A stretch of 64,000 nt of DNA from positions 5,088,001 through 5,152,000 of the forward strand of contig OZ242296.1 in NCBI GenBank assembly GCA_965207735.1, in the 5' to 3' direction. Source of the stretch: Candidatus Versatilivorator sp. (GTDB taxonomy: Bacteria; Acidobacteriota; Terriglobia; Versatilivoradales; Versatilivoraceae). The notes beneath the pieces were generated by a model. That model was not told the DNA's origin and did no database searches. It saw nothing but the letters and a program-made list of their open reading frames with translations. The translations under genes and the position numbers were made by a program. Numbering within the stretch: the stretch's first letter is position 1; the number at the start of each line of letters is the position of its first letter. Below, piece by piece: positions 491 to 34,920 of this stretch.

Positions 491-1882
491 ATGAATCGAA
501 GACAGCTTCTGCAGAGCCTTACCGTGGCTTCGGGATTGACGGCCACCGTGGCGGCCTGCAAGAACCAATCGGGAGAGCCGGCGGGATCCGCGGCTACCGG
601 TGGCTCCGGTTCCGGCGAACCGGTCTGTTACACCTCCGACTGGAAGCGCACCCGGCCGGACCTGGTGCTCTACCTGCCCAAGGAACCCCCCTACGCGTCC
701 GAGGCCAGCGACCACGTGCTTGTCGAGGTCACTCCCGGAGGTGACCTGCTGGCCATCTGGACCCTGGCCACCAAGGAGGGAGCCCACGACAATTCGGTGG
801 TGTACGCGCGCAGCAAGGACAACGGCGTGACCTGGACCCGGCCCCAGCCCATCGCGGCCCCCGAGAGACTGGGGACCTACTGCAACTTCGGCTGGCCGGT
901 GGTCAGCAAGTCGGGTCGCATCTACGTCTTCTACAACTTTGCCCCGGGAATCGGCGAGGGGTTCATCAACGCCCTCATGCGCTGCAAGTTTTCCGACGAT
1001 GACGGCTACACCTGGCAGGATGCCGGCATCGACATGCCCTACAAGAGGAACCCGAAGTACGATCATCCCGGTCCGGATGTGCTCAGTCGCTGCATCGTCT
1101 GGCAAAAGCCCATCCGGGACGCCAAGGACCGTCCGGTGGTTCCCCTGACCCGGTCCACGGCGGCTTACGTCAAGCCGTTTTCCAGGGACAAGAATCTGGG
1201 GGAATGCCGTTGCGAATTCATCCGTTACGAGAATATCGACGAGGGACCCCATCCCAGGGATCTCAAGCTGACTTATCTCCCCGAGGACGAGGATCTGATT
1301 TGGGTCCCCTGCACCTTCGAGCCGGAGAAATCCCAGGGATACACCTTCTGCCAGGAACCCGGGACCGTGCTCCTGCCGGACGGACGCCTGTTTGCGGCCA
1401 TGCGAACCGCCAACGGGCAGGTGTGGTACACGGTGTCGGACGACGCCGAGGCTCGGACCTGGCGGCAGGCCGAGATGTTGAGGTACCGCGACGGCGGGAA
1501 ACCGGTGGAGAACCCGGTCTCGCCCACCCCCATGTTCCGGCTCTCCGACGGACGCTTTCTGCTCTTCATGCAGAACCACGACGGCACGGGTTACGGAGGC
1601 AAGGGGCCGTTGGATCTCAACGCACGACGCCCGCAGTTTTTCGTGGTAGGGGAGTATCGCCCCCAGGCCCACCAGCCCGTCTGGTTCAGCCGGCCCAAGA
1701 TGATCTTCGACACCCACGCCACGGGTGTTTTCCCCAAGTACTGGAAGTGGTTGTCCATGTACGCCAGCTTCACCGAGCACCGGGGCAAGCGCATCCTCTG
1801 GTACGCCGACCGAAAGATTTTCGTGCTGGGGCGCACCATCACCGACGAGATGCTGGCCGACATGGCCGTTCCCAGAGCGTAG
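491..1882 (+). CDS. Sialidase-like (BNR/Asp-box) beta-propeller, Tat-exported lipoprotein
   Basis: MNRRQLL twin-arginine motif, VAAC lipobox, Asp boxes SKDNGVTW and SDDDGYTW. Confidence 0.8.
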   Translation: MNRRQLLQSLTVASGLTATVAACKNQSGEPAGSAATGGSGSGEPVCYTSDWKRTRPDLVLYLPKEPPYASEASDHVLVEVTPGGDLLAIWTLATKEGAHDNSVVYARSKDNGVTWTRPQPIAAPERLGTYCNFGWPVVSKSGRIYVFYNFAPGIGEGFINALMRCKFSDDDGYTWQDAGIDMPYKRNPKYDHPGPDVLSRCIVWQKPIRDAKDRPVVPLTRSTAAYVKPFSRDKNLGECRCEFIRYENIDEGPHPRDLKLTYLPEDEDLIWVPCTFEPEKSQGYTFCQEPGTVLLPDGRLFAAMRTANGQVWYTVSDDAEARTWRQAEMLRYRDGGKPVENPVSPTPMFRLSDGRFLLFMQNHDGTGYGGKGPLDLNARRPQFFVVGEYRPQAHQPVWFSRPKMIFDTHATGVFPKYWKWLSMYASFTEHRGKRILWYADRKIFVLGRTITDEMLADMAVPRA

Positions 1883-1911
1883 CGAGGTCGCGCCCGGACC
1901 GAAACGCATTT

Positions 1912-1941
1912 AAAAGAGTTATCCACTAAGGGCTACGAAGA
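1912..1941 (+). repeat. Truncated family A repeat fragment
   Basis: AAAAGAGTTATCCACTAAGGGCTACGAAGA resembles the repeat core at 9271-9301 and the intron 5' exon. Confidence 0.55.
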
Positions 1942-1955
1942 AATTGTTGATTTCT

Positions 1956-2264
1956 GAGCCTTTTGCAAAATTCGGAGTCGGGCGATCCTTTTTCAGATCG
2001 AGGGTTTTTCCTCCCGAGGCCCTCAAGGATCCGGTGACACTGAACCGGTTTGCCGTCTGAAGCTCAATGGCCACAAAAGGCACAAAAACACAAAGAGAAC
2101 CATCGGATCGGCAAGTCTCGAAATCAAGAAACTCGTTTTGTGCCTTTTGTGCTTTTTGTGGTTTCTGTTGTCTCTTGTGCTTATCGTGGTGAATGCTGGA
2201 GCCTGCAGCACATCATCCTTGCCGCCTCAATGTCATTCCCGATTGCGATATTTGCAAAAGGCTC
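1956..2264. mobile_element. MITE-like element with GAGCCTTTTGCAAA terminal inverted repeats, containing a family B repeat
   Basis: 1956-1973 GAGCCTTTTGCAAAATTC vs 2247-2264 GATATTTGCAAAAGGCTC (16/18 inverted match); related element at 52592-52816. Confidence 0.65.
2066..2194. repeat. Family B repeat (CCACAAAAGGCACAAAA inverted arms), copy 1
   Basis: Arms 2071-2094 and 2137-2161; near-identical to 52631-52759. Confidence 0.85.
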
Positions 2265-2271
2265 ATAATGA

Positions 2272-2423
2272 ACATGGATGCACAGGATGCACAGGATAAC
2301 CAGGACGGGACGCTGCTGCACGAGAAGCCGGCTCCGGCAATGATCGTGCGCGGATTTGCGGATGCTCAGGATTACCCGCTAGCCGTTTCCTGAAAAAATC
2401 CTGTGCATCCTGTGCATCCATGT
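2272..2423. repeat. Family C MITE-like element (GATGCACAG-unit inverted arms), copy 1
   Basis: Perfect 26-bp inverted repeat ACATGGATGCACAGGATGCACAGGAT at 2272-2297 and 2398-2423; core shared with 14876-15020 and 34234-34386. Confidence 0.9.
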
Positions 2424-2590
2424 GAATCAAAACCTGTTCCGAGCCTCCATAAAACTGTTGGCTGCGGAATTTTGCAAGAGGTTCTTCTGATTGTTGATTG
2501 GGAGGTATCCCAACTGACGTTGCCTCAAGATCCAAAATCCACAACACTTGACTCATCCGTCAGCGTTGTTTCGACTCAAGGAGTCATTCG

Positions 2591-3610
2591 ATGGCATACT
2601 CACGAGTTCCCCCCAGCACATTGAGCCGGCGCGGTTTTTTGGCCGGGCCGGTGGCGGCCACGGTCCTGGCGCTTCAGGGGCGGAGCCGGGCAGCGGCTCT
2701 CCCGATTCTCCCGGGGGCCGACTCCGCGACCGCCGTCGACCGGATCTACCGCAAGCTCCGGGGGCCGGTGGTGCCCATCAACATTCCCCTGGCCAAGGAC
2801 TACTCGGTGGACTACGGCAATCTCAGGGCCTACGTGGACTTCCTCTGCGAGAACCAGGCGCCGGTCATCTTCTTCACTCATGGCAGCAGCGAATTCAGGA
2901 GCATGAGCGAGCCTGAGATCGAGAAGCTGTGCCGGACCGCGGCCGAGCAGGCTCGCGGGCGTGCCCTGGTGATCGGGGGAACCGGGAAGTGGTGGACCGG
3001 CAAGAGTATCGACTTCATCCGGCGCCTGGAGGACTCGGGTGTGGATGGGGTCAACCTGCACCTCTTCACCAAGAAGCCGGAGGAGGTCTACGCCGCTTTT
3101 TCCGAAGTTTCCAGCCGAACCCGGCTGCCCCTGCTGGGTTACGACGAAGACTATTCGGCGGATCTGGTGGCCCGCCTGTCCACCATCCCCAAGGTGTGCG
3201 GACTGAAGAGCCATGACGCCCTCTACCGCTATCACGACTTCATCCGGGCGGTTAAGGACAAGGAATTTGTGGTCATTGGGGGGGGACAGATGCGTAATTT
3301 TCTCTATGGATACCTGATCGGCTCTCAAGGGTACCTCTGCGCCTATGCTCCCTTTGCCCCGGCAATCGCCTTCCGCTTCTACGGCGCTCTGGAACGCAAC
3401 GACCTGGATGAAGCCCGACGGGTGATGTTCGAATACGAAGATCCGCTCTTGAAAGTGGCCGGCTCCCTGGGCTGGGGCCAATCCATCAAGAGCATTCTGC
3501 AGATCAAGGGGCTCTTCCACACCAATCTGTGGCGGCCGCCCATTCCCTCCCACGGACCCGAGCAGAAAAAACAACTGAGGCAGTTCCTGGCCGACAAGGG
3601 CCTGCTGTAG
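2591..3610 (+). CDS. Dihydrodipicolinate synthase (class I aldolase) family protein with Tat signal
   Basis: HGSSEF motif, Schiff-base Lys in CGLKSH, N-terminal LSRRGFL. Confidence 0.8.
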   Translation: MAYSRVPPSTLSRRGFLAGPVAATVLALQGRSRAAALPILPGADSATAVDRIYRKLRGPVVPINIPLAKDYSVDYGNLRAYVDFLCENQAPVIFFTHGSSEFRSMSEPEIEKLCRTAAEQARGRALVIGGTGKWWTGKSIDFIRRLEDSGVDGVNLHLFTKKPEEVYAAFSEVSSRTRLPLLGYDEDYSADLVARLSTIPKVCGLKSHDALYRYHDFIRAVKDKEFVVIGGGQMRNFLYGYLIGSQGYLCAYAPFAPAIAFRFYGALERNDLDEARRVMFEYEDPLLKVAGSLGWGQSIKSILQIKGLFHTNLWRPPIPSHGPEQKKQLRQFLADKGLL

Positions 3611-3702
3611 CCGACCCTCGATTGCGTCCGGCCATCCATCGAGTCTATGATTGAGGTGGGGGTAGTCTCGCCTCTCGAGTTCCGAAGACACCCGCGCCAG
3701 TC

Positions 3703-4749
3703 ATGACACTGCCGACCGATCGCCGTGACTTCCTGAAATCCTCGGCCCTGATTGCGGGAGCTTCGGCGGTGACCTCCAGCCCAATGGCCATGTCCCTGAA
3801 ATCCCCTGTCGAGCCCGCCGCCGCGGTCGAGCTGAGAGCCAGGCTGCTGGAATGCCTGGGTGGAGACTGGCCCGAGCCCGGCGAGCTCGAGCCCAGGGTC
3901 ACACGGGAGGAGCAGCGCAAGGGTTACCGCTTGCTCCGGGTCGATTACGCGGTGGAGCCCGGCGATCGGGTGCCGGCCATCCTGTTGATCCCGGACGGAG
4001 TCACTCCCGCCTCGCCGGCCGCCGGGGTAGCCCTTTGGCACCAGCACGCGGGAAAGTGGCACCTGGGCAAGACCGAGCCCGCTGGCCTGGCCGGCGATCG
4101 GATGCACCATACCGGCGTGGCCCTGGTCCGACTGGGATACGTGGTCCTCTGTCCCGACGCCCTTTGCTTCGAAGATCGCCGGGATCCGGAGAGCCGGTTG
4201 AAGGGCGGCGATTATGAGCGGTACGAGTTCCTGCGTCAGGTGGTGAAGGGGCGCTGCATGGCCTGGAAAAACATTCTGGATATGCGGCGCGCCGTCGACT
4301 ACCTGAGCGCACGTCCGGAGGTCGACCCCCGGCGCCTGGGGTGTTACGGCCACTCCATGGGATCGACCCACACCTGGCTGGTGGGGCCCTGGGAACCGCG
4401 CTTGAAATGCCTGGTGGGCAACTGTTGCCTGCCCACCTACCGGGCGATTCATCGCCACAAGCTGCTCCACTGTTTCCCCAACTTCATCCCGGGTTTTCAC
4501 CGATTTGGGGATACTCCCGATATCGCCGGCCTGATTGCACCCAGGGCGCTGCATTTGAACTTTGGAGAGAACGACGCCAGCTCGCCCATCGGGGAGGTGC
4601 GGCGCGGCATGGAGCGCATCGGCCAAGCGTACGCCCGGGCCGGGGCCGCCGGCAGCTTCACCTGGTTCATCGAGCCCGGCGCCGGCCACGTCTTGTCGGA
4701 GAAGATGTGGCGGCGGGTCCGGGAGACGTTTGGGAAATACCTGGCGTGA
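3703..4749 (+). CDS. Alpha/beta hydrolase (dienelactone hydrolase / acetylxylan esterase-like), Tat signal
   Basis: GHSMG nucleophile elbow, GAGH, DRRDFLK. Confidence 0.85.
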   Translation: MTLPTDRRDFLKSSALIAGASAVTSSPMAMSLKSPVEPAAAVELRARLLECLGGDWPEPGELEPRVTREEQRKGYRLLRVDYAVEPGDRVPAILLIPDGVTPASPAAGVALWHQHAGKWHLGKTEPAGLAGDRMHHTGVALVRLGYVVLCPDALCFEDRRDPESRLKGGDYERYEFLRQVVKGRCMAWKNILDMRRAVDYLSARPEVDPRRLGCYGHSMGSTHTWLVGPWEPRLKCLVGNCCLPTYRAIHRHKLLHCFPNFIPGFHRFGDTPDIAGLIAPRALHLNFGENDASSPIGEVRRGMERIGQAYARAGAAGSFTWFIEPGAGHVLSEKMWRRVRETFGKYLA

Positions 4750-4847
4750 CGGTCCCCCCGGACAAGCAGGGCAGCCGCGGGGCGGTCGGTGGCCGCGCCG
4801 GCAGCGACGGGACATAGATAGATGGAGTCGAGAATGGAGAAGGCCGG

Positions 4848-6641
4848 ATGAGTCTGCAGCTCATGTGGTGTCGGTGGTTGATAAGCGGGTGTTTGGTGGG
4901 CTGTTTGCCGGCCGGGTGGTTGTCGGCGGAAACCGTTTTCCAGCGGTACCATCCGCAACCCCTGGAGATCCGCAACCATCCCTTGGAAATTGAGAACAAC
5001 TCCGACCATCCCTATCGGTTTGTGCTTTCCGTTTTAGGGGTGCGGCAAGCAGAGTTCGTTCCCCTGCTGGCTGTCGTTCTGGACCCGGAGGACTCCACGC
5101 CTCATCAGTGGATTGCGGTCTGGAACTTGAGCAGCAGCTCTCCCGGGTTCATCCAGCGAGTGAAGGCGGCGCTGCCGTTTCCCTGGTGGTCGCCTCGGGG
5201 CGGTGCAGGTGGAACCGCGGGGTCTATCCGAAGACTGCCCAAGCCGGTCTTGACGGCGCGTGGCCGAAAATCGGGCGCCAAGGGCCGGTTTGTCTGGGCA
5301 GCCGCCAGGACGGTGTCGGACTTCGCCAGTTTTTTCAGTCCGGGGCGGTTTGCGCTGGAGACCTACCGGGACCATCGCAACGATCTGGACGAACGGCAAT
5401 TCCATCAACTCTACTCCCTCCTGTTGCTCTATGAAGAGGCAGCGGCCCGGCAGTCCTCCGACCGGAACCTGGGGCTGCGAGCCATCATGGACTTGAAATA
5501 TACGGCCCTGATCAACCGCGAGGCTCTGGGCATCGTGGTGAGCGGTCGCTCCGAATACTGGGTGGTGGACAACTTCGAGACCCGCATGCGGGAAAAAATG
5601 GGGAAGGCGGCCGCCTATCTGCACAGCCGGGCCACTCTCCAAGACTTGCGTTTCCAGGAGGTTCACTTTGGACTGGATGGCCGGTGGCCGCTTTTTCGGA
5701 CCGCGGTTCTCTCGATCTGCAAGGCGGATCTGCCCAAACAGCCCAGGTCTTGGCCCAAGAATAATCCCTTCGACCTGGGCTACAACCCTTTCGAGCATCC
5801 GAAAGTCCGGGCACGCATGGACGAAAATCCCGAAGAAGAGATCCCGCTGGCCTATTACGTGCTCATCAGCGATTTCAAGTTGCGCCCGGTGATTGTGCTG
5901 AACTTCTTCAATCCGGGAAACCCCGGCCGAAGGCAGGACACGGCCGTGCTTCGCAACACGGCCGAGAATTTGCTTTCCGTCTATGGCTTGCCGCTCCACC
6001 TTCAGGCACTTCGCTACATCGGCAGTTGGAGCCTCGGCAGGAAAGACGTAACCTATTTCAGCACCCGATCGGTCTCCTCGGGAATCGAGCCGGCCAAGCT
6101 TTTTGCTCGAATGGGCTGGCATTTCGACGAGGACACCAATCGGCTGCTGCTCAGGATGCTGGATCGGCGCACCTCCAACCCACTGGCCGATTCCTTCGCC
6201 CGCCAGGCTGAGAACGCCAGGACCCGCCACCAGGCCATCACCCGAAACGCTTCCGGGCGGCTGCGCCTCTTCGTTCGCAGGGTCTACGAGGACGGAATTC
6301 GGGAGAGGCTCGACCTGGGCCGCCGCTCGATCTCCACTGAGGACATCGCCCGCTTCCGGCAACAGCGGCGGCTGGACCGAGCGCTGGAGATCATTCGCGG
6401 GTTCAATCGGCAGCCCCACATGAACGGGGTGGCCTGGCCCCGCCTGTTCCAGGCCTGGGACCGCCTTTCCGCGGCCGATCCGCGGCGCGGCCGGCCCGAG
6501 TCCCGGCGCTTCCTGCAGAAACTCCAACGGCTTTACCCGCGCGCGGTGCCGGAAGGATACCGGAGCCAGGTGGCGGGCTGGATTTTCCCCTCCGGCCCCG
6601 CCTCTCAGTCCTCGGCCTTCCCCGCTAAATCAACTCCTTGA
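4848..6641 (+). CDS. Secreted hypothetical protein
   Basis: 597-aa ORF with signal-like N-terminus; stop overlaps the next gene's TTG start. Confidence 0.7.
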   Translation: MSLQLMWCRWLISGCLVGCLPAGWLSAETVFQRYHPQPLEIRNHPLEIENNSDHPYRFVLSVLGVRQAEFVPLLAVVLDPEDSTPHQWIAVWNLSSSSPGFIQRVKAALPFPWWSPRGGAGGTAGSIRRLPKPVLTARGRKSGAKGRFVWAAARTVSDFASFFSPGRFALETYRDHRNDLDERQFHQLYSLLLLYEEAAARQSSDRNLGLRAIMDLKYTALINREALGIVVSGRSEYWVVDNFETRMREKMGKAAAYLHSRATLQDLRFQEVHFGLDGRWPLFRTAVLSICKADLPKQPRSWPKNNPFDLGYNPFEHPKVRARMDENPEEEIPLAYYVLISDFKLRPVIVLNFFNPGNPGRRQDTAVLRNTAENLLSVYGLPLHLQALRYIGSWSLGRKDVTYFSTRSVSSGIEPAKLFARMGWHFDEDTNRLLLRMLDRRTSNPLADSFARQAENARTRHQAITRNASGRLRLFVRRVYEDGIRERLDLGRRSISTEDIARFRQQRRLDRALEIIRGFNRQPHMNGVAWPRLFQAWDRLSAADPRRGRPESRRFLQKLQRLYPRAVPEGYRSQVAGWIFPSGPASQSSAFPAKSTP

Positions 6642-9226
6642 CCAGCGACTCGATTTCAAATCCAGGAACTCCAAGGCCATCTGCCCCAAGAAGGATTGCC
6701 TGCCTTCTGGCCGTCACCGCCTTGGGCATCTGCTGCGGTTCCGAATGGGCCGCGGCCGAGCCGGCCTCCCGGGAGCAGCGAGCCAGAGTCATTCTGCTCA
6801 AGGTCGACGGGCTATCGGGCCTCCTGATCGAGGCGGCTCTGGCCCCGCAATCGGAGGCCGCCTTGCGGCTGCCCTTTCCGGGACGCTTCCGAGAAGACTA
6901 CCGGGCCACAAAGACTCTGCTGGCAAGGGAAGAACTGCTCCCCAACATGAAGGAGTATTTTGTCCGTCAGGGAGTGCGTGCCGAAACCATCTTCACCGGC
7001 ACTCTGCCGCTCTCGGCTCCGGTTTGGGCCCAGATCGACTCGGGCCAGCCCAGCATCGTCAAGAGGAACTTTTACTTCAACCGGGCCAGCGGCGCCTCCG
7101 GAGTTTTTCTGAACGGCATGTTCGACTCGGCAGGCAAGCTGATCAAGGGCAGCGGGCGGACCCACGCTCTCTGGGAACTGGATCTGCTGGGGATTCCCAT
7201 TCTGCCGGATGCGTTTCCGCCGGAAAGGGTCTGGAGTTCCCTGCAGATCTTGAGCCGCAAGCGGTCGGCCATACAACTGGGGGCCATGGGCAAGTTCCTG
7301 GTCCGGGCCGGCGAACGAGAGTTCAGGCCGGGGGCCGTGATCCACCAGCACCTCTCCCACCTGGTGGCCTATCCCGACCATGTGGAACGCCTGGACCAAA
7401 GCTTGTCCCTTACCCTGGCCAAGTGGCTCAAGTGGCGGGCCGAGGAAGATCCCTCCGAGACTCTCGACTTTATCACCGCGCTGTTCGTGACGCTCGACCA
7501 CCGTTTTCATGTGGAAAGCTCCTACCGGTCGGTCCTGCACCTGCTGGTCAAGCTGGATGACTGGTTTGGAGAAGTCATGGGGGCGGTGGAGCAGACGGCT
7601 CGCCGGGACCGGACCCTGGTCGCCATGGCCTCCGACCATGGGATGAATCTCTATCCGGTCCACATCAACTACGGGTTCCCCATCAACCCCTGGCTGCGCC
7701 AGCCGGAATTTGGCGGCCACACCGTGTTGTCGCCGGAAGTGGAGGATTCCGATCATTCCTTGACTCGGCTGATTCCCGGGGTGGACTTCGGCAGGGTTTA
7801 CGAGAGCCCGGCATCCCCGTACGGCGAGACTGTGCCCTTCGGGTCCAAGGGGTACTTCACGGCCTTCGCCGCCAATATGGGGAATCCAAGATTCGATCTG
7901 TTTCTGCGCCATTCCGATCTGAACCGACTCCACCTGCTCCTGCTGGAGTCGCTGCGCCTGCGAATCGATGAGGAGAAGCTGGATCGCGTGTTTGAGGTCT
8001 TCCAGCCGGTCTTCCAAAGGGCTCGTCCCTGGTTGGAAGCGGATGCCTACTCCCTGCGGCAGGCCGCGGAGGTGTTCGAGGCGTGGTCGGAGCGGCATCT
8101 TGCGGCCGGAATGCCCTCGGCCAGGGACGCGGGCTCACGACTGGCTTCCGAGTCGAGACTCTATCGCAACCAGGCCACCATCCTACGGCGATTGCTGGCC
8201 GTACCGGTGGAAGAAGAGGAATGGCGCCGGTTCGTGCGGTCGGGTTTTGAAATCGATGGGGTGATCCCCAAAGGATACTTCGGCCCACCCAACAATCTGG
8301 CGGAACTTGCCAGTTACACCGTGGGCTGGGCCAAGCCGGCTACCGAGCGCTGGTCGCAGTCGGGCGAGGCGCCCTTTCGCACCCTGAACTATCCGGAACT
8401 GATTGCCGGCTATCGGGCGCTCAATCCGGATGCCTATGGGAACCGCTACCCCTTCAACCTGTTTGTCGCCCGGATGCCGCTGGAGGAATTGACCGGATGG
8501 AAGGGCCTGCCGCTCCGGCAGGCGCTGTGGCTGCTGGCCTCGGAAGATCGCGGCCAGGCAGTCCTTCTGGAAGCAAGAGACGGGCCCATCTGGTATGCGC
8601 CCCTCAAGAATCGCGGGGAGCTTGAAACGCTCGATGAAGCAGGGGCCGCCGGGTCCAGGGATCCTCTGGGGTACCCCGCCCGGTTGTGGGCACGCTGGCT
8701 CGACCCGCGCCGGTGGGTTTCGGAGACGGCCAGGCTGGACGCCAGCCTGGCCCCGGTGATCCTGGCCGACCTGTTTCGGCCGAACTTCCAGGACTTTTTG
8801 AGCAGCGAAAGTCGTGCCGGCGTTCTGTTGCCGCTGGACGGGTCCGGACGTCGGGAGGAGCTGGTGAGAGCGCTCCGGTTCCGCTTCGAACGGGCCACCC
8901 CCGACTTCCGCGTCTGGATGCGGCACGGCTGGAACGTCAACACCATGGGCCAGCAGCCGGGCGGCAGCCACGGCGGGTTCCTGCCCATGGAGACCCAGAC
9001 CGCCTTCATGGTCTGGGGAGGAGACGCTCTGCGTCTCAAGCGGGGCCGGAAGCTTGCCGGAGCCTTCCTCACCCTGGACATCGCTCCCACCCTGATGGAC
9101 GCTATCGGAAGGCTCGATCCCGTCAGCCGGCGGATCGTTCCCGATCCGGACCACGCCTCGCCGCCCGATTTCCCTCCCTATCCCGGTCGGATCATTCCCA
9201 TTCGGCAGCAGGCTGCCAATCCGTGA
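6638..9226 (+). CDS. Alkaline phosphatase superfamily (nucleotide pyrophosphatase/phosphodiesterase-like) protein, large and secreted
   Basis: Metal-ligand motifs VILLKVDGL, LDHRFH, ASDHG, GSHGGF, LDIAPT; signal peptide. Confidence 0.75.
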   Translation: MTSDSISNPGTPRPSAPRRIACLLAVTALGICCGSEWAAAEPASREQRARVILLKVDGLSGLLIEAALAPQSEAALRLPFPGRFREDYRATKTLLAREELLPNMKEYFVRQGVRAETIFTGTLPLSAPVWAQIDSGQPSIVKRNFYFNRASGASGVFLNGMFDSAGKLIKGSGRTHALWELDLLGIPILPDAFPPERVWSSLQILSRKRSAIQLGAMGKFLVRAGEREFRPGAVIHQHLSHLVAYPDHVERLDQSLSLTLAKWLKWRAEEDPSETLDFITALFVTLDHRFHVESSYRSVLHLLVKLDDWFGEVMGAVEQTARRDRTLVAMASDHGMNLYPVHINYGFPINPWLRQPEFGGHTVLSPEVEDSDHSLTRLIPGVDFGRVYESPASPYGETVPFGSKGYFTAFAANMGNPRFDLFLRHSDLNRLHLLLLESLRLRIDEEKLDRVFEVFQPVFQRARPWLEADAYSLRQAAEVFEAWSERHLAAGMPSARDAGSRLASESRLYRNQATILRRLLAVPVEEEEWRRFVRSGFEIDGVIPKGYFGPPNNLAELASYTVGWAKPATERWSQSGEAPFRTLNYPELIAGYRALNPDAYGNRYPFNLFVARMPLEELTGWKGLPLRQALWLLASEDRGQAVLLEARDGPIWYAPLKNRGELETLDEAGAAGSRDPLGYPARLWARWLDPRRWVSETARLDASLAPVILADLFRPNFQDFLSSESRAGVLLPLDGSGRREELVRALRFRFERATPDFRVWMRHGWNVNTMGQQPGGSHGGFLPMETQTAFMVWGGDALRLKRGRKLAGAFLTLDIAPTLMDAIGRLDPVSRRIVPDPDHASPPDFPPYPGRIIPIRQQAANP

Positions 9227-9238
9227 GGCGTGCAGTCT

Positions 9239-9426
9239 GGTTGCCTGAAACAACCGAAAAAAGACAAAAGAAAAAGAGCTATCCACGAAGGGCCACGAAG
9301 AACGACGAAGGGCCACTAAGGCGTTGAGGTTAACCGCGACGGGATACCAAGGTTGCGAAGGGATGATCGATTTCCAATGGTTTCACTCTCGCATGAACCG
9401 CACTGCAGGGCGGGGGCGGGACTTGT
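9239..9426 (+). repeat. Family A dispersed repeat (empty group II intron target), copy 1
   Basis: ATCCACGAAGGGCCA|CGAAGAACGACGAAGGGCCACTAAGGCGTTGAGGTTAA; matches 11461-11571, 34732-34920 and the intron flanks. Confidence 0.9.
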
Positions 9427-10360
9427 CGGGAACCGCCTTAACCCAGAGGGCGCGGTGATCGGAGAATCCGATCCTTTGCACGCGTCGGTCCTGGGCCTTC
9501 AATTTCCTGAGAAAGATCCAATCCAGCTTGAGCGGAGCCCAGGCATGGGTGCGCCCGGTTTGGGTAAAGGGTGTGGTGTATCCGTAAGTCTTCAGCCTGG
9601 CCAAAACGGGCCTGACCTGGCGATGGAGGAAGGGCAGGGGAAGCAGGTTTTCAACCCAGAGATAGTTCTGGGTGTTGAGGTCGCCGGCGATCAGAGAGGC
9701 TTGGGGCAGTTTTGAGGCGGCCTCGAGCACGGGATGAAGCTGCCGGCAGCGCTGTTTCAGGTTGATGCGGGTGTCCAGATGGAGGTTGACCAGGCCGACG
9801 GCGCCCAGGGGTGTGGCCGCAATGGCGGTCAGGGCAATGCGGCAGCGATTGTTGACCTTGAGGATAAAGCGGGGCAGATGGATGACCTCGGGGTCTTGCA
9901 GGGGGTAGCGGCTGAGAATGGCCAGTCCCTGGGCGCCGTTTTCTCCCACTCGCTGAGCCGGGGCGAAGAGATAGTCATAGCCGAGGTGTTTGGCAAGCCG
10001 GTCGATTACAAGGGAGCCCCGATCGGGGTGGTGCTCGACTTCCTGGAAGAAGAACAGATCGGACTGGAGGAGCTGGACCCTTTCCAGTTCCCGTTGAATA
10101 TTGCGGAAGGAAGTCTCGGTGGCCAGATTCAGGCTGGTGGCTGTCAGGCTGAGGGCCGGGGAGCGGACCGCCTGGTGGAATCTGCCGAATCGGGGGGCGA
10201 CCTCCAGGCACACCGGCCGGGTTCCACCCTCGCCGGGGATGGCGAGCGCCGAAAGGGTCAGAAAGACCGGCAGTAGACACTTGATAGTGAATCGGAAGCA
10301 GCCGTTGAAAAAACGGTTACACGATATTGTCGCCGGGAAAATGTTTCCTCGCACACTCAC
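9383..10360 (-). CDS. Endonuclease/exonuclease/phosphatase (EEP) family protein; start uncertain
   Basis: Motifs TSLN, FQEV, NLHLD, AGDLN, LDWIF, SDHRAL. Confidence 0.85.
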   Translation of the reverse strand: MSVRGNIFPATISCNRFFNGCFRFTIKCLLPVFLTLSALAIPGEGGTRPVCLEVAPRFGRFHQAVRSPALSLTATSLNLATETSFRNIQRELERVQLLQSDLFFFQEVEHHPDRGSLVIDRLAKHLGYDYLFAPAQRVGENGAQGLAILSRYPLQDPEVIHLPRFILKVNNRCRIALTAIAATPLGAVGLVNLHLDTRINLKQRCRQLHPVLEAASKLPQASLIAGDLNTQNYLWVENLLPLPFLHRQVRPVLARLKTYGYTTPFTQTGRTHAWAPLKLDWIFLRKLKAQDRRVQRIGFSDHRALWVKAVPDKSRPRPAVRFMRE

Positions 10361-10411
10361 AGATATTGAACGTTTGCAGGATGCATCCAGCGACCCGGTG
10401 AGAAATGCGGG

Positions 10412-11431
10412 CTAGGGCCAGGGGCGTCCGGCATCGGTGGCCTGGATCATGCGCTCCAGCCTGTCGGCAATGTAGCGGGTGCCGATGGCAATCAGCTTCT
10501 CCCCTTTTTCCGTGCTGGCCAGCAGGGCCTGCTCCTGACGGGCGCGGTCTCTGGGGTTTTCGGGGTTGGTGGTCCGCTGGGCATCGAAGGGTTCCATATA
10601 CTCCCAGACCTTGGGCGGCATGTCCGATTCATAGTTCAGACCGGCCCGGTCGTATTCCTCCAGGGTGACGAAACGCACCCGGTCCGGATAGGCGGCCATG
10701 ACGATCGAGGTTTCGTTTTCGGAGGCATGGCTGTGGCCGGTCTGGCGGGCGAGTGTGTCCAGCTCCCCGTCCAGCTTCTGCCGGTAGGAGGTCAGGAAGG
10801 TGGCCAACTCCTCCTCCTTGTAACCCTCCCCGTAGGAGACGGCATCCAGGGTGACGCCCAGTTTGCGGCGCCACTCCGGGACCGCCCCCTTGAGCAGGCC
10901 ATGGTTTCCCCCGTGGCCGTTGACCACCAGGATGGTGCCGAACCCGTGAGCGGTGAGGCTTTCGATCACGTCGAAGACATAAGCCAGAAAGGTTTCCTTG
11001 CGCAAGGTGAGGGTTCCCTTGCGGGCCATGTGATATGGGGAGTAACCCACCGGGCAGGGCGTGGAGACCGTCACCCGGGGGTAGAGCCGGAGGGCGGCCT
11101 GTTGAGCAAACAAGGTGGCGGTGGCGGCGTCTGTGATCAGCGCCAGGTGTTCGTTGTGCTGCTCGGTGGATCCGGTAGGCACGATGGCCGCCTTGAGATC
11201 GCCGCTCTGAAGAGCTTCCCGGACTTCCTTGCGGGTTCGTTCCCACAGCAGAACTTTCTGGGGATGGACAAAGCCGGAGGAAGAGCCGGCCATGGAGGAG
11301 GAGATCAGGGGGGCGGAGCGAGAATCGTAGGCCGCTGCCGGAGCAGAAGTGGGGGACCCAAGGATGGATCCGGCAGCCCCGGCGGCGCCCAGGGATTGCA
11401 GAAACCTTCGACGAGAAAACCCTGGTTGCAT
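10412..11431 (-). CDS. Creatininase family amidohydrolase with Tat signal
   Basis: GSTEQHNEHL..D, VNGHGGN, HASENETS; FSRRRFL. Confidence 0.88.
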   Translation of the reverse strand: MQPGFSRRRFLQSLGAAGAAGSILGSPTSAPAAAYDSRSAPLISSSMAGSSSGFVHPQKVLLWERTRKEVREALQSGDLKAAIVPTGSTEQHNEHLALITDAATATLFAQQAALRLYPRVTVSTPCPVGYSPYHMARKGTLTLRKETFLAYVFDVIESLTAHGFGTILVVNGHGGNHGLLKGAVPEWRRKLGVTLDAVSYGEGYKEEELATFLTSYRQKLDGELDTLARQTGHSHASENETSIVMAAYPDRVRFVTLEEYDRAGLNYESDMPPKVWEYMEPFDAQRTTNPENPRDRARQEQALLASTEKGEKLIAIGTRYIADRLERMIQATDAGRPWP

Positions 11432-11460
11432 CGCACAATCTCCTTCGCGACCGTGACATT

Positions 11461-11571
11461 CCGTCGCGGTTAACCTCAGCGCCTTAGTGGCCCTTCGTCG
11501 TTCTTCGTGCCCCTTCGTGGATAAGTCTTTTTCTTTGTCTCTTGTCGTTTTTCGGTTGTTTCAGACAAGCC
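11461..11571 (-). repeat. Family A dispersed repeat, copy 2
   Basis: Reverse complement reads ...TTATCCACGAAGGGGCA|CGAAGAACGACGAAGGGCCACTAAGGCGCTGAGGTTAACCGCGACGG. Confidence 0.9.
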
Positions 11572-12557
11572 TACCGCTTGAAAAAGAAGTCCTCGGCGGT
11601 CTTGATCAGGATCTGCTCCTTGTCCGCCGGGCTGAGAAAGTCGGCATGGTCCCGAATGAGGGCCACGGCCGGTTCAATTCCGTGCGGAGGGTCGGGCAAG
11701 GGATGCCTGGAGGGGCGGTCGGGAGGGAAAGGCGCATCGCTCTCCCACATACATCGTTCCGGACCGAAGGCCGCCACCACCCTCTTGATCAAGGGCAGCA
11801 GACTGGTGTAGGGAGGGGTTCTGCCTCGACTGTAGAAGGCTCCCACTTTCATCATGACCCGCTTGTGGTCGGCCATGCGCAGCAGGGCGGTCACTTCCTC
11901 TTCGGAGGAGCCCTCGTTAACCCCGGCCAGGTGGTCCAGGATGATGGGAGTTTCCGGGTAGCGGCTGCACATGCGGTCGATTTCGGGGAGATCCCGGGGG
12001 CCCATCAGGAAGCTCAGCGCCAGGTTGTGGTCGGCCCCCGCCTTGAACATTTTGTCGAATCCGGGGTGGTCCATCCACTGCGGGCCTCCTCCGAGGGGAG
12101 GACGGGTGCTGCCGCCGCGTACGCGAAAGGCGTAGACGCCCTGTTTGGAGAGTGCCACCATGGTCCGGTCGGGGCCGGCCAGGGAGACGTCGGTGACCGC
12201 CGGAATGATGCCGGTGCCTACGAAGTGTTCGGGGTCGTTGGCGATGACGTCCAGGATGTAGGAGTGGTCGAGGCCGTACCAGGTCATCTGGATCAGGTTG
12301 ATCTTGCCTACTCCGGACCGATGAGCCTCCTCGAGGAGCCTCTCCGCCGAAAAGCTCGGCACCCAGAGGTCTTCGGGCGTGAAGCCGTCAGCAAGCGGAA
12401 AGCGCTTGTGGTCGGAGCTCCAGATGTGAACGTGGGCATCCACGATGCGATGTTCGGTGGGCTTCGGTTTGGTGGGGTCCTTGCTGCCGCACGCCGCCGC
12501 CATCAGTCCGGCCCCTCCGGCTGCCAGCAGCCATTCGCGCCGGCTCATGCTGTCCAT
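11571..12557 (-). CDS. Amidohydrolase_2 family (lactonase-like), Tat lipoprotein
   Basis: VDAHVH, ILDHLA, MWESDAP; MSRREWL...MAAAC. Confidence 0.85.
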   Translation of the reverse strand: MDSMSRREWLLAAGGAGLMAAACGSKDPTKPKPTEHRIVDAHVHIWSSDHKRFPLADGFTPEDLWVPSFSAERLLEEAHRSGVGKINLIQMTWYGLDHSYILDVIANDPEHFVGTGIIPAVTDVSLAGPDRTMVALSKQGVYAFRVRGGSTRPPLGGGPQWMDHPGFDKMFKAGADHNLALSFLMGPRDLPEIDRMCSRYPETPIILDHLAGVNEGSSEEEVTALLRMADHKRVMMKVGAFYSRGRTPPYTSLLPLIKRVVAAFGPERCMWESDAPFPPDRPSRHPLPDPPHGIEPAVALIRDHADFLSPADKEQILIKTAEDFFFKR

Positions 12558-12569
12558 GACTGACCTCCC

Positions 12570-13592
12570 TCAACCTTCCCGCTTCACCTCGGAGTGGGAG
12601 CGGGCAATTTCGGCGATGACCGCCTTGTCCTGCTCAGCAACCTGGGTTCCCGGCGGCCTGACCGGCCCACCGGCCCGCCCCAGCGACTCCAGGGCCACCT
12701 TGATGGCGCTGATGCCATACCCGGGCTGAACCCCGCGCAGCTTGACCACCGGCTCGATCTTGTCCTTGAGCACCCGGTTCATCGGTTCCTTCTCTCCCGC
12801 CACGCCGTGCTTCCAGAAGGCGTGGCTGGCCTGGGGAACGAAAGTGGCCACCGCGGTGGTGTAGGCGCGGCCGCCCACCGGCAGGGTCTTGGCGGCGTGG
12901 CCCTCGCCTTCGGCCACCCAGAGGAAGTCGTCCGGAACCAGGTCGCCCAGGGCCAGACCCACCTGGGTGTCGCCGCTGGGGTCCTTGAAGCCGATGACGT
13001 TCTCGATCCGCGACAGTCTCTTCAACAGGCCAGGCCAGTACTCCTCGGACCGCGGATAGATGAGCACTCCGATGTCGACCGCCTTGGCCACGTCCAGGCA
13101 GCAGCGGTAGGTGCCCTCCTCCAGGCCCCAGCGGGAGCCCGGCGGAAAGATCAGCACGGCATCGGCCCCCGACTGTTCCGCATTGCGGGCCATGCTCAAT
13201 GCGTTGCGGTATCCGCCGCCGACCCCCGCCACCACCGGCATTTTCCCGTCGGCCCCGGCCACCGCCGCCGTGACCAGCGCCCGATGCTCTTCGATGTCCA
13301 GGCTGTAGAGCTCGCCCAGTCCCCCGGCAACCACGATGGTCATATTCTGGTGGAAGCCGCGGGCGTGATCGGCCACGTTGCGACGGAGCCCCTCCGAATC
13401 CAGCTCGAAGTCGGGGTGAAAGGTGGTGACCATGAAGTTGTGCACGCCCTGCAGGGACTGAATCAGATCCCTGCGGTTGCGGGCCTTTCCCGACCGTGGA
13501 GCGGCCTGGCAGGCGGCCATGGGACCCAGTGCCAGAGTTCCGGCGACCAGCGCAAGGTTCTGAACGAATCCTCTTCTGCTGTGTTCTCTCAT
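12570..13592 (-). CDS. DHDPS family protein (5-dehydro-4-deoxyglucarate dehydratase-like), Tat lipoprotein
   Basis: GGLGE, IYPR, IGFKD catalytic Lys; HSRRGFV...MAAC; GGAG RBS before ATG at 13592. Confidence 0.8.
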   Translation of the reverse strand: MREHSRRGFVQNLALVAGTLALGPMAACQAAPRSGKARNRRDLIQSLQGVHNFMVTTFHPDFELDSEGLRRNVADHARGFHQNMTIVVAGGLGELYSLDIEEHRALVTAAVAGADGKMPVVAGVGGGYRNALSMARNAEQSGADAVLIFPPGSRWGLEEGTYRCCLDVAKAVDIGVLIYPRSEEYWPGLLKRLSRIENVIGFKDPSGDTQVGLALGDLVPDDFLWVAEGEGHAAKTLPVGGRAYTTAVATFVPQASHAFWKHGVAGEKEPMNRVLKDKIEPVVKLRGVQPGYGISAIKVALESLGRAGGPVRPPGTQVAEQDKAVIAEIARSHSEVKREG

Positions 13593-13656
13593 GGCGCGTC
13601 TCCGGTTTCTTGCCACTCCAACCCGCGGTCAGGACCGGCTGACCTAACTCGGCGCC

Positions 13657-13685
13657 ATCATACTTGGTTGACCGGCGGCCAGCAA
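13657..13685 (-). promoter_or_regulatory. Putative sigma70 promoter for the DHDPS/amidohydrolase genes
   Basis: Minus strand TTGCTG-17 nt-TATGAT. Confidence 0.5.
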
Positions 13686-13774
13686 CCCCCATCTGGCCGC
13701 CCTCGACCCCATTGACAAGGCGCTTTCGGTCTGGATAGTCTCTCCCGGAAGCAAGACCGTTTCGGGAGGGAAGA

Positions 13775-14860
13775 GTGGTTCCGGTTTCCGGAGAAGAGGC
13801 GCGGCGGTCCTTCTGGTCGGGACGTCCGGTCATCGACTGCGACCTGCACAACGAAGTGCCCTCGCTGGAGGTGCTGAAGCCCTATCTGGCCGACCACTGG
13901 TGCGCCTATATCGAGGAGTCGGCCTTTCGGGGGCCGGATGCCGACGACTATCCCAAGGGAGCGCCAACCTCCATTCGACCGGGACTGGACTGGGAGGGAG
14001 AGGTGGAGGGGCAGCTTGCCCTCATGCAGGAGCAGGTGCTCGACCCGCTCCAGATCGAATTCGGTGTGCTGGACTGCGCCTACCGGGTTCAGGGGGTGCA
14101 CGACCCCAACCTGGCCGCGGCCCTGGCCTCGGCCATCAACCGGTGGCAGGTCGAGCACTGGTTGGACAAGGATCCCAGGTTGCGGGCTTCCATTGTGGCC
14201 CCCACCCAGAGCCCGGTGCTGGCGGCAAGGGAAGTCGACCGCTGGGGCGCCGATCCCCGTTTCGTACAGGCGGTCATGCCGGTCCGGTCGCTCATCCCGT
14301 ACGGCAACCGGATTTACGATCCCATCTATGAGGCGGCCACCCGCCACGATCTGGTGGTGGGGATTCAGTTCGGAGGAGCCCCCGGCCATCCCCCCACCCC
14401 CAGTGGCTGGCTCTCCACTTATCTGGAGGAGTACGCCGCCATGGCCCAGGTCTTTCAGTCCCAGGTGACCAGTTTGATCGTGGAAGGCGTGTTCGACCGC
14501 TTTCCCGACCTGAGAGTGGCTTTGATCGAGGCGGGCTGCACCTGGATGCCTTCGCTGATGTGGCGGCTCGACAAGGAGTGGCGGGGCCTGCGCCGAGACA
14601 TCCCCTGGGTCAAGCGCCCGCCCTCCGAATACATCCGCCGGCACATCCGACTCACGCTGCAGCCCGTGGATGCTCCGCCGTCTCCCGGGCAGCTCCTGGA
14701 GGTCATCGGCCAACTGGACTCCGACGAGATGCTGATGTTCGCCACCGACCATCCCCACTGGCACTTCGATCGCCTGGAAGAGGCCTTTCCGGCAGGCTTG
14801 TCCGAGTCCCTTGCCCGCCGGATACTGGCCGAAAACGCCCGCTCCTTTTACCGGCTCTAG
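13775..14860 (+). CDS. Amidohydrolase-fold protein, subunit 1 of a probable amidohydrolase-related dinuclear oxygenase
   Basis: IDCDLH, IEAG, TLQP, ATDHPHW; paralog of the next gene; Rieske gene follows. Confidence 0.8.
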   Translation: MVPVSGEEARRSFWSGRPVIDCDLHNEVPSLEVLKPYLADHWCAYIEESAFRGPDADDYPKGAPTSIRPGLDWEGEVEGQLALMQEQVLDPLQIEFGVLDCAYRVQGVHDPNLAAALASAINRWQVEHWLDKDPRLRASIVAPTQSPVLAAREVDRWGADPRFVQAVMPVRSLIPYGNRIYDPIYEAATRHDLVVGIQFGGAPGHPPTPSGWLSTYLEEYAAMAQVFQSQVTSLIVEGVFDRFPDLRVALIEAGCTWMPSLMWRLDKEWRGLRRDIPWVKRPPSEYIRRHIRLTLQPVDAPPSPGQLLEVIGQLDSDEMLMFATDHPHWHFDRLEEAFPAGLSESLARRILAENARSFYRL

Positions 14861-14875
14861 ATCGAGCCTTTGATT

Positions 14876-15020
14876 AACATCGATGCGCAGGATGCACAGG
14901 ATTTGTTCAGGAAACGCCCAGTTTCCATTCTTGAGCATCCGCAATCCCGCCTCTCATCATTGCCGGAGCCGGCTTCTCGTGCAGCAGCGTCCCGTACTGG
15001 TTATCCTGTGCATCGATGTT
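14876..15020. repeat. Family C element, copy 2 (reverse orientation), between two co-oriented paralogous genes
   Basis: AACATCGATGCGCAGGAT...ATCCTGTGCATCGATGTT; core matches reverse complement of copy 1. Confidence 0.88.
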
Positions 15021-15108
15021 GATTATGAAAAAATATCGATCCCCCACGCGTGTTAAGATGGGAACGCCTGGGGACAAGACCAGGCGGGGCACTGGAGAGC
15101 TCACAATA

Positions 15109-16209
15109 ATGGCGACAGCGATAAGCTCAACACCATCCCCGACCGACCGCAAAAAGTCGCAGTTGGAGGTCATCGACTGCGACATCCACAACATCATCCC
15201 CTCCAATGAGACCCTCTACAAGTACCTGCCGGAGCGCTGGCGCCGGCACCATCAGAGGTTCGGACTTCGCGGCCATCTGGGAGGAAATTATCCGCGGGCG
15301 CTGATGAACGCCGCCCGGCACGATGCCTGGCCGCCTTCGGGATTGCCGGCGGGCTCGGATCTGGAGTTCATGCGGGAGCAGTTGCTGGACGCCTATGACA
15401 TCCGATACGGCATCCTCAACTGCCTTTACGGGGCCGGCGGTCAACTCAACCTGGAGTACGGGGCCGCGCTGGCCCGGGCGATCAACGACTGGCAGATCGC
15501 CGAGTGGCTGGAACCGGAGCCCAGGCTGCGCGCCTCCATTGTCGTTCCCTACGAGGATGGGGAACTGGCGGCGGAAGAGATCGATCGGGTGGGAGGCCAT
15601 CCGGGATTCGTTCAGGTCCTCATGCTGGTTCGGACCAACGAGCCCCTGGGCCGGCCCAGGTACCGCAAGATCTACCAGGCCGCGCTGCGCCACCAACTGC
15701 CGGTGGGCATCCATTTCGGCGGCGCTGGCGCAGGACCCATTACCGGGGCCGGCTGGCCCTCCCACTACATCGAGGACCATGGGGGCATGCCCCAGGCCTT
15801 TCAGGCCCAGGTCATCAGCTTGGTTTGCGAGGGTGTGTTCGAGCAATTTCCCGCGTTAAAAGTGGCCCTGATCGAAGGGGGCTTCGCCTGGCTGGCTCCG
15901 CTCATGTGGCGGTTGGACCACGGTTGGCGCAAGCTTTCCGAGGAGATCCCCGCGCTCCGGCACCCGCCATCCACCTACGTTCGGAAGCATTTCTGGTTCA
16001 CCTCCCAGCCGATGGAAGAGCCTCCCCAGCCGCGCTACTTCCGGCAATTGCTGGAGCAGATGGACACCGATGACCGAATGATGTTTGCCACCGACTATCC
16101 GCACTGGGACTTCGATTCCCCGGAGAGCGCTCTGCCGGCCGGCTTGGCTCTGGAGTTGAAGAAGAAAATCATGTCGGAGAACGCGCGCGGGCTCTATGGT
16201 CTTGACTAG
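15109..16209 (+). CDS. Amidohydrolase-fold protein, subunit 2 of a probable amidohydrolase-related dinuclear oxygenase
   Basis: IDCDIH, GIHFGG, IEDH, IEGG, SQPMEEP, ATDYPHWD. Confidence 0.82.
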   Translation: MATAISSTPSPTDRKKSQLEVIDCDIHNIIPSNETLYKYLPERWRRHHQRFGLRGHLGGNYPRALMNAARHDAWPPSGLPAGSDLEFMREQLLDAYDIRYGILNCLYGAGGQLNLEYGAALARAINDWQIAEWLEPEPRLRASIVVPYEDGELAAEEIDRVGGHPGFVQVLMLVRTNEPLGRPRYRKIYQAALRHQLPVGIHFGGAGAGPITGAGWPSHYIEDHGGMPQAFQAQVISLVCEGVFEQFPALKVALIEGGFAWLAPLMWRLDHGWRKLSEEIPALRHPPSTYVRKHFWFTSQPMEEPPQPRYFRQLLEQMDTDDRMMFATDYPHWDFDSPESALPAGLALELKKKIMSENARGLYGLD

Positions 16210-16262
16210 GCTCCTCCCCAACCCGCCGGCCACAGCTCTTGGGGCGCCCCCCCTGAAATCGG

Positions 16263-16718: not shown

Positions 16719-16808
16719 CCGGAAGGCATCGCGCCGGGTGCGAAATCGCCGATTCGGCACTCGCCCGGACTAGAGCTACCAGCGCAAACAGACGGGAGGT
16801 GGATATAC

Positions 16809-18347: not shown

Positions 18348-18392
18348 AGGGGCAGATCTGCTGGCGAGGATTCGCCTCCGCGGGGCTGCCCG

Positions 18393-18656
18393 TGGTAGTC
18401 ACTCTCGGAGCGCCGCGTTGGCCCCCCTCCGGATCGACTGCGGGCTGGCGCCCTTGTCTCTCCGACTCCCCCTCAAGGGGGGAGTGATACTTGAGGCTTG
18501 CATCAGGCGCCTTGCCCGATTCCTGGGCAGGATGTAAACCATGTTCCCGGTCTACCGCATAAACTCCGTTCCCTCTTCATAACACGGGTATCACTCCCCC
18601 CTTGAGGGGGAGTCGCAGAAGTCGAGCCGAATGGCGAAGGCTGATGCGGAGGGGGG
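18393..18656. repeat. Family P palindromic composite repeat between convergent genes
   Basis: Two ACTCCCCC(C)TTGAGGGGGAGT-type palindromes around a ~110-bp core; reverse complement of 39261-39522. Confidence 0.88.
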
Positions 18657-18682
18657 CATACGCCGGTCCGCCGGTGCGGGCG

Positions 18683-30886: not shown

Positions 30887-31087
30887 ATCCTGCGCATCCT
30901 GTCTATCCATGTATTTTCATTAACATGGATGCACAGGAACTACAGGATTTGGTTTTGGGAGGTTTTGGGAGTCCGGCGTCGTGTATGTCCGTTAATCCGC
31001 AGGGCGTCGTCGGATCATCTTCTGAGTGAGCGTCGTGTGCACCGGCTTCACGTTCTGCCAATCCTGTGCATCCTGTCCATCCATGTT
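30887..31087. repeat. Family C element, divergent copy (30922-31087) plus an extra half-arm (30887-30912)
   Basis: AACATGGATGCACAGGA...ATCCTGTGCATCCTGTCCATCCATGTT. Confidence 0.75.
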
Positions 31088-34114: not shown

Positions 34115-34233
34115 CCTTGCGCCCCCTTGCGACCCCCGCCCTGTGGTACGGATCATGCGAGAAAAAACAACGAATCTTCATAGCCGGTCGGCAACAAGGA
34201 CCCTGTTCCCTTAGCACGGTTTTCTACCTATTG

Positions 34234-34386
34234 AACATCGATGCACAGGATTAACAGGATTAACAGGACGAGAGCTTCCTGCACCAGAAGCCAACTCGGG
34301 CGATGATCCGGTGCGGATTTGCGGATTCCCGGCATTGGAAGCCAGCCGTTTCCTGAAGAATCCTGTGAATCCTGTGCATCGATGTT
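34234..34386. repeat. Family C element, copy 3
   Basis: AACATCGATGCACAGGATTAACAGGAT...ATCCTGTGAATCCTGTGCATCGATGTT. Confidence 0.88.
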
Positions 34387-34731: not shown

Positions 34732-34920
34732 ACAAGTCCCGCCCCTGCCCTGCCGGGCGGATCATCCGAGGGTGAAACAATCAGAAATCGATTATCCTTT
34801 CGCGACCTTGGTACCCCGTCGCGGTCAACCTCAACGCCTTAGTGCCCCTTCGTCGTTCTTCGTGCCCCTTCGTGGATAAGTCTTTGTCTTTTGTCGTTTG
34901 TCGGTTGTTTCAGACAAGCC
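34732..34920 (-). repeat. Family A dispersed repeat, copy 3
   Basis: Reverse complement ...TTATCCACGAAGGGGCA|CGAAGAACGACGAAGGGGCACTAAGGCGTTGAGG...GGGCGGGACTTGT. Confidence 0.9.

Follow-up and report, generated by a model that had tools for sequence, protein, structure and literature searches.

Internally deleted GxxExxY cassettes and their insertion sequence flanks in Candidatus Versatilivorator

Four short repeats with inverted arms in the genome of Candidatus Versatilivorator (Acidobacteriota) raise the question of where such gene-less sequences come from and what multiplies them. The window, that is, the whole stretch of DNA analysed here, covers 64,000 nucleotides of this complete 5.26-Mb genome (C1:5088001-5152000). 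A preliminary description had regarded the four repeats as internally deleted derivatives of a GxxExxY gene cassette and had taken this gene, together with its arms, for a mobile unit. Inspection of the sequence found all four elements at the positions given there, with ACAT...ATGT bounds at 2272-2423, 14877-15019, 30923-31086 and 34235-34385, and the four core translations quoted were reproduced, elements 1 and 4 being on the plus strand and elements 2 and 3 on the minus strand. The elements and their parts are the following:

2272..2423, plus strand: element 1, with one in-frame 321-bp deletion relative to the parent gene
2272-2297 and 2398-2423, plus strand: left and right arms of element 1
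After the left arm to about 2358, plus strand: 5' gene remnant of element 1
2359-2396, plus strand: 3' gene remnant of element 1, containing the parent's stop (2388-2390)
14877..15019, minus strand: element 2, short class, no insertion sequence (IS) end adjacent
30887..30912, minus strand: lone arm, outward-facing relative to element 3
30923..31086, minus strand: element 3, divergent short-class copy with a nearest-neighbour identity of 0.74, no IS end adjacent
34235..34385, plus strand: element 4, short class, 97.5% identical to three other copies

Each arm is composed of a terminal ACAT(C/G)GAT and one to four copies of NNACAGGAT. A fuzzy search of the whole genome for such arms returned 135 left arms and 153 right arms, forming 86 pairs and leaving 116 arms unpaired. 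The family analysed here comprises the 85 pairs of at least 120 bp, one pair of 58 bp being left out; 51 copies belong to the short class, 21 to a 192-217-bp class, 6 to a 226-236-bp class and 7 to others. The paired-arm pattern has 32 matches in this genome and none in the reversed control. Among 41 genomes it is present in 13 of the 14 from the genus (12 of 13 besides this one) and in none of the 27 outside it. The arm-bounded elements are short, multicopy and non-coding and have terminal inverted repeats, which are the hallmarks of MITEs. Element 1, folded as single-stranded DNA, reaches -50.5 kcal/mol (z -8.15), a value equalled by 0 of 200 shuffles. No replication-strand bias was seen, 47 of the 85 copies lying on the leading strand. 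The arm pair formed by the lone arm at 30887..30912 and element 3 is also present in two relatives, without the core of element 3.

The parent gene and its deletion derivatives

It is essentially certain that the four repeats and their family are internally deleted remnants of a GxxExxY cassette, as the preliminary description had proposed; the proposal is borne out by intact parents with the same arms and by homology of the cores with the arms removed. All 85 arm-free cores align to the parents above all 255 mononucleotide shuffles and all reverse complements (medians 49.6, -25.7 and -26.4 for cores, shuffles and reverse complements, respectively), and each of the four window cores, stripped of its arms, scores above all 200 of its own shuffles against the parent gene. 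In all 85 elements this DNA homology covers both ends of the parent gene on the sense strand. The short class retains parent core bases 0-52 and 373-412, i.e., it has a single 321-bp in-frame deletion, which removes the GxxExxY motif and the active site. Longer classes retain about 0-87 plus 204-259 or 201-279 of the parent core. The remnants trace to a few founding deletions.

The search for PF13366 genes and their flanks that had been suggested together with this proposal found the parents in six congeners. There, a full gene lies between the same arms, with its N-terminus encoded by the left arm and its stop preceding the right arm. The other expectation, a profile match of the translated cores, did not hold for the short copies: the translated cores of elements 1, 2 and 4 matched no NCBIfam family at E up to 10. 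In a pairwise comparison, 18 of 24 residues of the element 1 translation are identical to the parent, part of them arm-encoded. The genome of Ca. Versatilivorator has lost the intact gene: a PF13366 search, tblastn and a custom profile found no intact GxxExxY gene in it, five PF13366 fragments being present, and no autonomous partner with the same ends as the arm-bounded elements was found in it either. Deletion derivatives are seen elsewhere too, a Pirellulaceae genome having one full and five deleted GxxExxY copies in tandem.

All six congeners carry their copy at one junction, which we take to be that between gspE and gspF of the type II secretion cluster. This anchor was found in 13 of the 14 genus genomes, and 6 of these 13 have the full gene at it. 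At the same junction, the genome studied here has two gene-less elements (161 and 145 bp), G002 has one remnant and G011 several remnants with other deletions, G009 has a different repeat, and G001, G004 and G007 have 5-40 bp only. In the six parent genomes the gene is thus single-copy, fixed in its locus and flanked by repeats, which is what characterizes the enzyme gene of REPIN-RAYT systems. Paired hits number 18-105 in the six parent genomes, 0 in G001 and 5-55 in the seven genomes without the gene; copy number across the genus does not follow the presence of the parent. G001 has a related gene elsewhere; a gene of the same subfamily is found in 7 of the 14 genus genomes. The gene of G001 lies between two hairpins, upstream of a cytochrome gene, and in opposite orientation. 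This cytochrome gene is the ortholog of window 32225-34156, beside the gap holding element 4.

The parent protein of the relatives scores 145.8 bits against TIGR04256 (GxxExxY / PF13366; curated cut-off 35). E44, D83, E93 and K95 are invariant in 64 relatives, with a D...ExK motif. The predicted model (pLDDT 86.2) matches the Cas4-like SSO0001 (Z 8.0, rmsd 3.2, 99 aligned, Foldseek E 6.9e-4) and the archaeal Hjc (Z 6.6, rmsd 3.3, 85 aligned). By fold and D...ExK motif, the protein is predicted to be a PD-(D/E)xK nuclease. These two features it has in common with SSO0001, Hjc and lambda exonuclease, but it has no clear best partner among them, and because the top structural matches are tied the substrate of the nuclease cannot be assigned. 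A sequence search of the PDB with the parent protein gave nothing significant, i.e., no solved sequence relative. A fold of the PD-(D/E)xK type is not known as a stand-alone transposase. The PF13366 entry gives the function as unknown and refers to multiple transfers (PMC3424549).

The gene is under purifying selection, with dN/dS of 0.06-0.28 over 15 pairs. In 13 of these 15 its dS exceeds that of the adjacent gspF gene, and one pair is discordant; in G006 it is gspF that is the outlier, the GxxExxY gene being close to that of G012. This pattern suggests that the GxxExxY gene was exchanged among genomes, although codon bias could inflate the dS difference.

Insertion sequence ends and orthologous sites

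Outside the arms, the flanking sequence is mostly repetitive as well. It is unique on both sides in 2 of the 85 elements, and for 159 of 200 arms in this genome the outer flank is common to others. An identical core is found with different flanking modules, and identical modules are found with different cores. The commonest upstream module is the left end, and a common downstream module the right end, of a resident IS110 element (NF033542, 220 bits, cut-off 140) that has 10 intact copies, 97-100% identical. Its left end is present at most 330 bp upstream of 37 of the 85 elements (random places, 11/1000; mirrored orientation, 1/85) and its right end at most 300 bp downstream of 38 (random places, 12/1000; mirrored orientation, 2/85). 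Both ends in the correct orientation flank 24 of the 85 elements and 2 of 1000 random places. A looser IS110 motif is found at 48 of 85 elements, to which 8 in IS1182-like composites are added; 20 of these 48 correspond to a degenerate version located 15 bp upstream, which is also found before the parent gene, so some of the association is inherited and does not indicate movement. We had considered the sequence upstream of the parent as a native flank carried along, an idea that was dropped since this sequence is a degenerate IS110 left end.

The second carrier is a resident IS1182-like element of 1487 bp with GAGCC-type ends, which has 43 identical copies, 36 of them with 4-bp duplications. 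The family name is approximate, the best model for the transposase being IS1182 at 117 bits vs a cut-off of 270. The carrier features in the window are the following:

1956..2484, plus strand: non-autonomous composite of 529 bp carrying element 1, bounded by IS1182-like terminal inverted repeats
1952..1955 (left) and 2485-2488 (right), plus strand: 4-bp target duplication TTCT of this composite
2069..2161, plus strand: sister element, in which CACAAAAGG-type 9-mer arms enclose a C-terminal remnant from a different GxxExxY subfamily
34133..34169, plus strand: degenerate IS110 left end, 65 bp upstream of element 4
34735..34918, plus strand: IS110 miniature with CACGAAGG-arm cargo, left end to about 34778, right end 34903-34918

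The terminal repeats and the duplication length of the element 1 carrier match those of the intact IS1182-like element, and the sister element is its second cargo. Among the four IS1182-like composites with both ends found, two have an exact 4-bp duplication. Element 4 has, besides its degenerate IS110 left end, a right end 517 bp away. No recognised IS end lies upstream of 29 of the 85 copies, including elements 2 and 3, and some of these keep a right end. Median nearest-neighbour identity is 0.971 for carried copies (n=56) and 0.847 for uncarried ones (n=29; p 5e-7, the copies being non-independent). Judged by this identity, the carried copies appear to be younger. Finally, G012 has, and G013 lacks, an IS110-ended unit carrying such an element (window about 11440-11575); the IS110 target word is found at either end.

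Several observations concern the carriers themselves. The insertion target of the active IS110 (C1:2818838-2820512 and nine further copies) resembles its own right end, and consequently IS110 and over 200 miniatures stack in tandem with varied cargo. At window 52589-52816 there is a version of the element 1 composite minus the element and about 100 bp, with the joint at a 6-bp GTGAAT repeat. At C1:3929358-3931435, a 1.9-kb IS is inserted in the left arm region of a family element that is intact in G002. Two other candidates for a carrier were rejected. The REPs of the resident RAYT lie within 300 bp of only 5 of the 85 elements. The elements also bear what we take to be a resemblance to IS91 ends; no Y2 transposase was found in this genome, and one was found in 3 of the 14 genus genomes.

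Presence and absence at orthologous loci, together with target duplications, had been proposed as a check on mobility. The comparison brought out turnover, but across the relatives neither a target duplication nor a clean empty site at the arms; these genomes are 80-97% identical, which blurs footprints. Within this genome, 30 candidate empty sites are mostly tandem-arm artefacts, and two are genuine but open to more than one reading, one being a collapse to a single ACATCGATGT palindrome and the other an ATTAAT site. The element loci of G002, mapped on this genome, show swaps of whole patchworks and no clean arm-only insertion, and orthologous gaps in relatives hold different patchworks with common end modules. 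In twelve relatives, the gap of element 2 holds this family (three), CACGAAGG arrays (five), another miniature (one) or no repeat (three); in the closest relative, an additional 399 bp lies there between two left arms. At the element 4 site, the closest relative has a copy of the 198-bp class behind the same upstream module. Module swaps often map at the arms (elements 2 and 4), a position that recombination or arm-directed cutting would explain no less than IS carriage. Over window 1000-19000, the contigs from four public runs contain no joint skipping elements 1 or 2, a negative that carries no weight because contigs break at repeats.

We favour, with fair confidence, the view that the recent spread of the family is due to carriage by IS110 and IS1182-like miniatures in combination with recombination. 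The copies in this genome likely multiplied mainly as passengers in miniatures of these two resident insertion sequences. Deletions may arise in or beside the parent locus, gene-less remnants may then be captured between IS ends, and IS transposases would move the composites in trans; recombination between common repeat modules likely reshuffles the copies. Movement in trans of this kind has been shown for ISPpu9, where an IS110 transposase mobilises a gene-less derivative (PMC12288879). The view that the repeats are arm-bounded MITEs mobilised by the nuclease finds no support here, given the missing intact gene, the missing duplication at the arms and the position of the young copies inside IS ends.

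Arms across phyla and competing explanations

Among 80 related loci from many phyla, 75 have an intact ORF, and 49 of these have the arm word of the present family upstream and its complement downstream (control, 4/432). The arm of the present family accompanies 74 of 79 proteins at no less than 57% identity and 0 of 23 below that value (102 of 110 loci scored, three loci counted twice). Other GxxExxY subfamilies have other arm words. That the gene and its arms moved as a unit between lineages is supported indirectly, by shared arms and by the signs of exchange. To that extent the mobile unit envisaged in the preliminary description finds support, but the copies in this genome do not show the arms to be its bounds.

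The 75 loci fall into 55 flanking contexts, an upper estimate from crude ORF clustering, and 16 of them sit between genes that we take to be hsdR and hsdM. Of 57 distinct hsdR-hsdM loci, 43 reach hsdM. One of the 43 has the cassette with arms, one has a single chance word and 41 have neither; no target duplication could be read at the cassette. Small accessory genes of various kinds make this junction of a type I system a hotspot. For example, G042 has the order hsdR, GxxExxY with a 16-unit arm, hairpin, a presumably hicB/hicA-like pair, hairpin and hsdM, in which the hairpins punctuate the accessory genes and resemble cassette boundaries.

In a Dehalococcoidia genome with an intact parent, most of the 85 arm hits are lone arms, and a common flank was seen for 0 of 30 sampled, which means that IS carriers are dispensable in some genomes. 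An Opitutales genome lies in between, with a common flank for 14 of 25 sampled arms. Five of the Dehalococcoidia arm sites, when set against up to ten relatives, proved polymorphic; they lie at gene 3' ends in the gene's direction and look like short replacements without duplication, within the limits set by relatives that are 70-90% identical. Among the 31 genomes of this clade, 3 have parent and arms, 10 have arms with no parent found (82 arms in one of them) and 18 have neither. Dispersal of arms without common flanks makes a nuclease-driven REP-like mobility system, composed of the predicted nuclease and the arms, possible. The predicted nuclease may itself have given rise to the older copies outside IS carriers and have moved the full cassette from lineage to lineage; it probably cuts at or near the arms and promotes recombinational copying, and not strand-transfer transposition. 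As a separate observation, lone arms in G044 and at the loci L328-L337 are inserted in the gene's direction at a stop codon or directly behind it, some of them supplying the stop, and have the 5' consensus GAACTN.

A more comprehensive reading, which we put forward tentatively and only as a whole, is that GxxExxY cassettes are selfish DNA. A predicted nuclease of 130-150 residues would recognise and cut its own arms, which overlap the gene, and repair would copy arms, deleted cassettes and neighbouring cargo without target duplications; each protein subfamily would have an arm word of its own across many phyla, and dead miniatures would hijack IS110/IS1182 ends after gene loss.

In a stricter form, which we regard as unlikely, the GxxExxY protein is a dedicated mobilising enzyme for which its own arms are the recognition signal, and which cuts and places copies of arm-bounded elements at new intergenic sites; most copies would predate the loss of the gene, and the IS ends would be later neighbours in common hotspots. 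The correspondence of arm type and protein subfamily agrees with such an enzyme, as do purifying selection, the dS pattern suggestive of exchange and the invariance of D83, E93 and K95. So do the Dehalococcoidia lone arms, with unique flanks and polymorphic among relatives, and the distribution of the parent in that clade (3/3 parent genomes with arms, parent in 0/18 armless genomes). However, since the gene overlaps part of the arms, co-inheritance is enough to account for the match of arm and subfamily. Moreover, this genome has no intact gene even though 10 of 85 copies have a neighbour at 99% identity or above, the fixed distances and single orientation relative to the IS110 ends are unexpected of chance neighbours, no comparison gave a target duplication at the arms, and ten arm-bearing Dehalococcoidia genomes yielded no parent.

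Host homologous recombination and slippage could also have spread the remnants by converting patchworks, with no need of an IS transposase or a nuclease. The different patchworks with common end modules in orthologous gaps, the loss of 399 bp between two left arms at element 2 and the tandem arrays at parent loci are all as this would predict. Recombination alone, however, cannot seed empty sites, and the 4-bp duplication of the element 1 composite, which matches the IS, and the IS110-ended unit that distinguishes G012 from G013 make it a rather improbable explanation. Finally, it is hardly credible that the elements are kept for a function as a small peptide, a structured RNA or a CsrA-binding sequence. 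Such a function would agree with the in-frame main deletion, with the ATG and at least 30 open codons seen in 18 of 51 short copies, with the strong hairpin and with what we take to be CsrB-like CAGGA words, but 23 of the 51 short copies stop before 30 codons, variability is equal over codon positions (0.185, 0.174 and 0.190 in 47 copies), CsrA was not found in this genome and orthologous sites turn over freely.

Relation to known repeat systems

Comparison with three known systems may help to place these elements. First, there are the REPIN-RAYT systems, in which RAYT is proposed as the mobilising enzyme, and the REPtrons and TIRtrons (PMC3116915, PMC3733652). The likeness includes an enzyme gene in single copy between inverted repeats of its own, numerous gene-less intergenic hairpin copies, tandem clusters, mosaics and repeats that outlast gene loss. 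In contrast, the GxxExxY partner is a predicted PD-(D/E)xK nuclease and RAYT an HUH tyrosine (Y1) transposase, and the GxxExxY arms are 9-mer arrays encoding the protein N-terminus, with a gene remnant as spacer. The genome studied here has, separately, an intact RAYT with its own REPs of the CGTC type. It is located at about C1 2226920-2227510, flanked by these REPs, and has tandem relics of its own 3' end; CGTC repeats are reported to lack a flanked transposase (PMC3733652).

Second, IS-derived MITEs are likewise short, non-coding, high-copy internal deletions of an identifiable parent with terminal inverted repeats. Here, however, the parent is no known transposase, there is no target duplication at the elements' own ends, and the amplified unit usually reaches past the arms to IS ends. 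Third, MITEPpu9 of ISPpu9 (PMC12288879) is similarly gene-less, has IS110 ends, lies beside an intact IS110 and has tandem modules; the cargo is foreign in our case, consisting of nuclease-cassette remnants, and the carriers are known from assembled sequence. No description of nuclease-plus-arm cassettes was found in the literature searched, which mostly excluded subscription papers. In a reverse-transcriptase preprint, GxxExxY is a passing label.

These observations link a protein family that is widespread but functionally uncharacterised with a specific candidate DNA substrate, and parent, remnant and empty alleles matched at one locus make the function directly testable. They also indicate that a high copy number of such elements is no proof of nuclease-driven movement, since young copies ride IS miniatures. 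Should the arms indeed be mobilised by the nuclease, this would be a mobilising enzyme of very small size, and intergenic repeats in many uncultured phyla would have a new origin. If the cassettes are selfish DNA, they would constitute a REP/RAYT analogue on a different catalytic fold.

Other repeats in the window are related or comparable to this family. The CACGAAGG 9-mer arms are those of a second GxxExxY subfamily, which is truncated here and intact in G011, G009 and G002; in the window these arms occur at 9237-9441, 11430-11575 and 34722-34922, and the copy at 11446-11560 is absent from contigs of two other runs. The repeats at 18383-18686, 38856-39588, 45440-45519 and 43996-44102 are CCCCCTTGAGGGGG hairpins and 7-mer arrays (CTCTCCA and GATTGTT types), all of them polymorphic among relatives.
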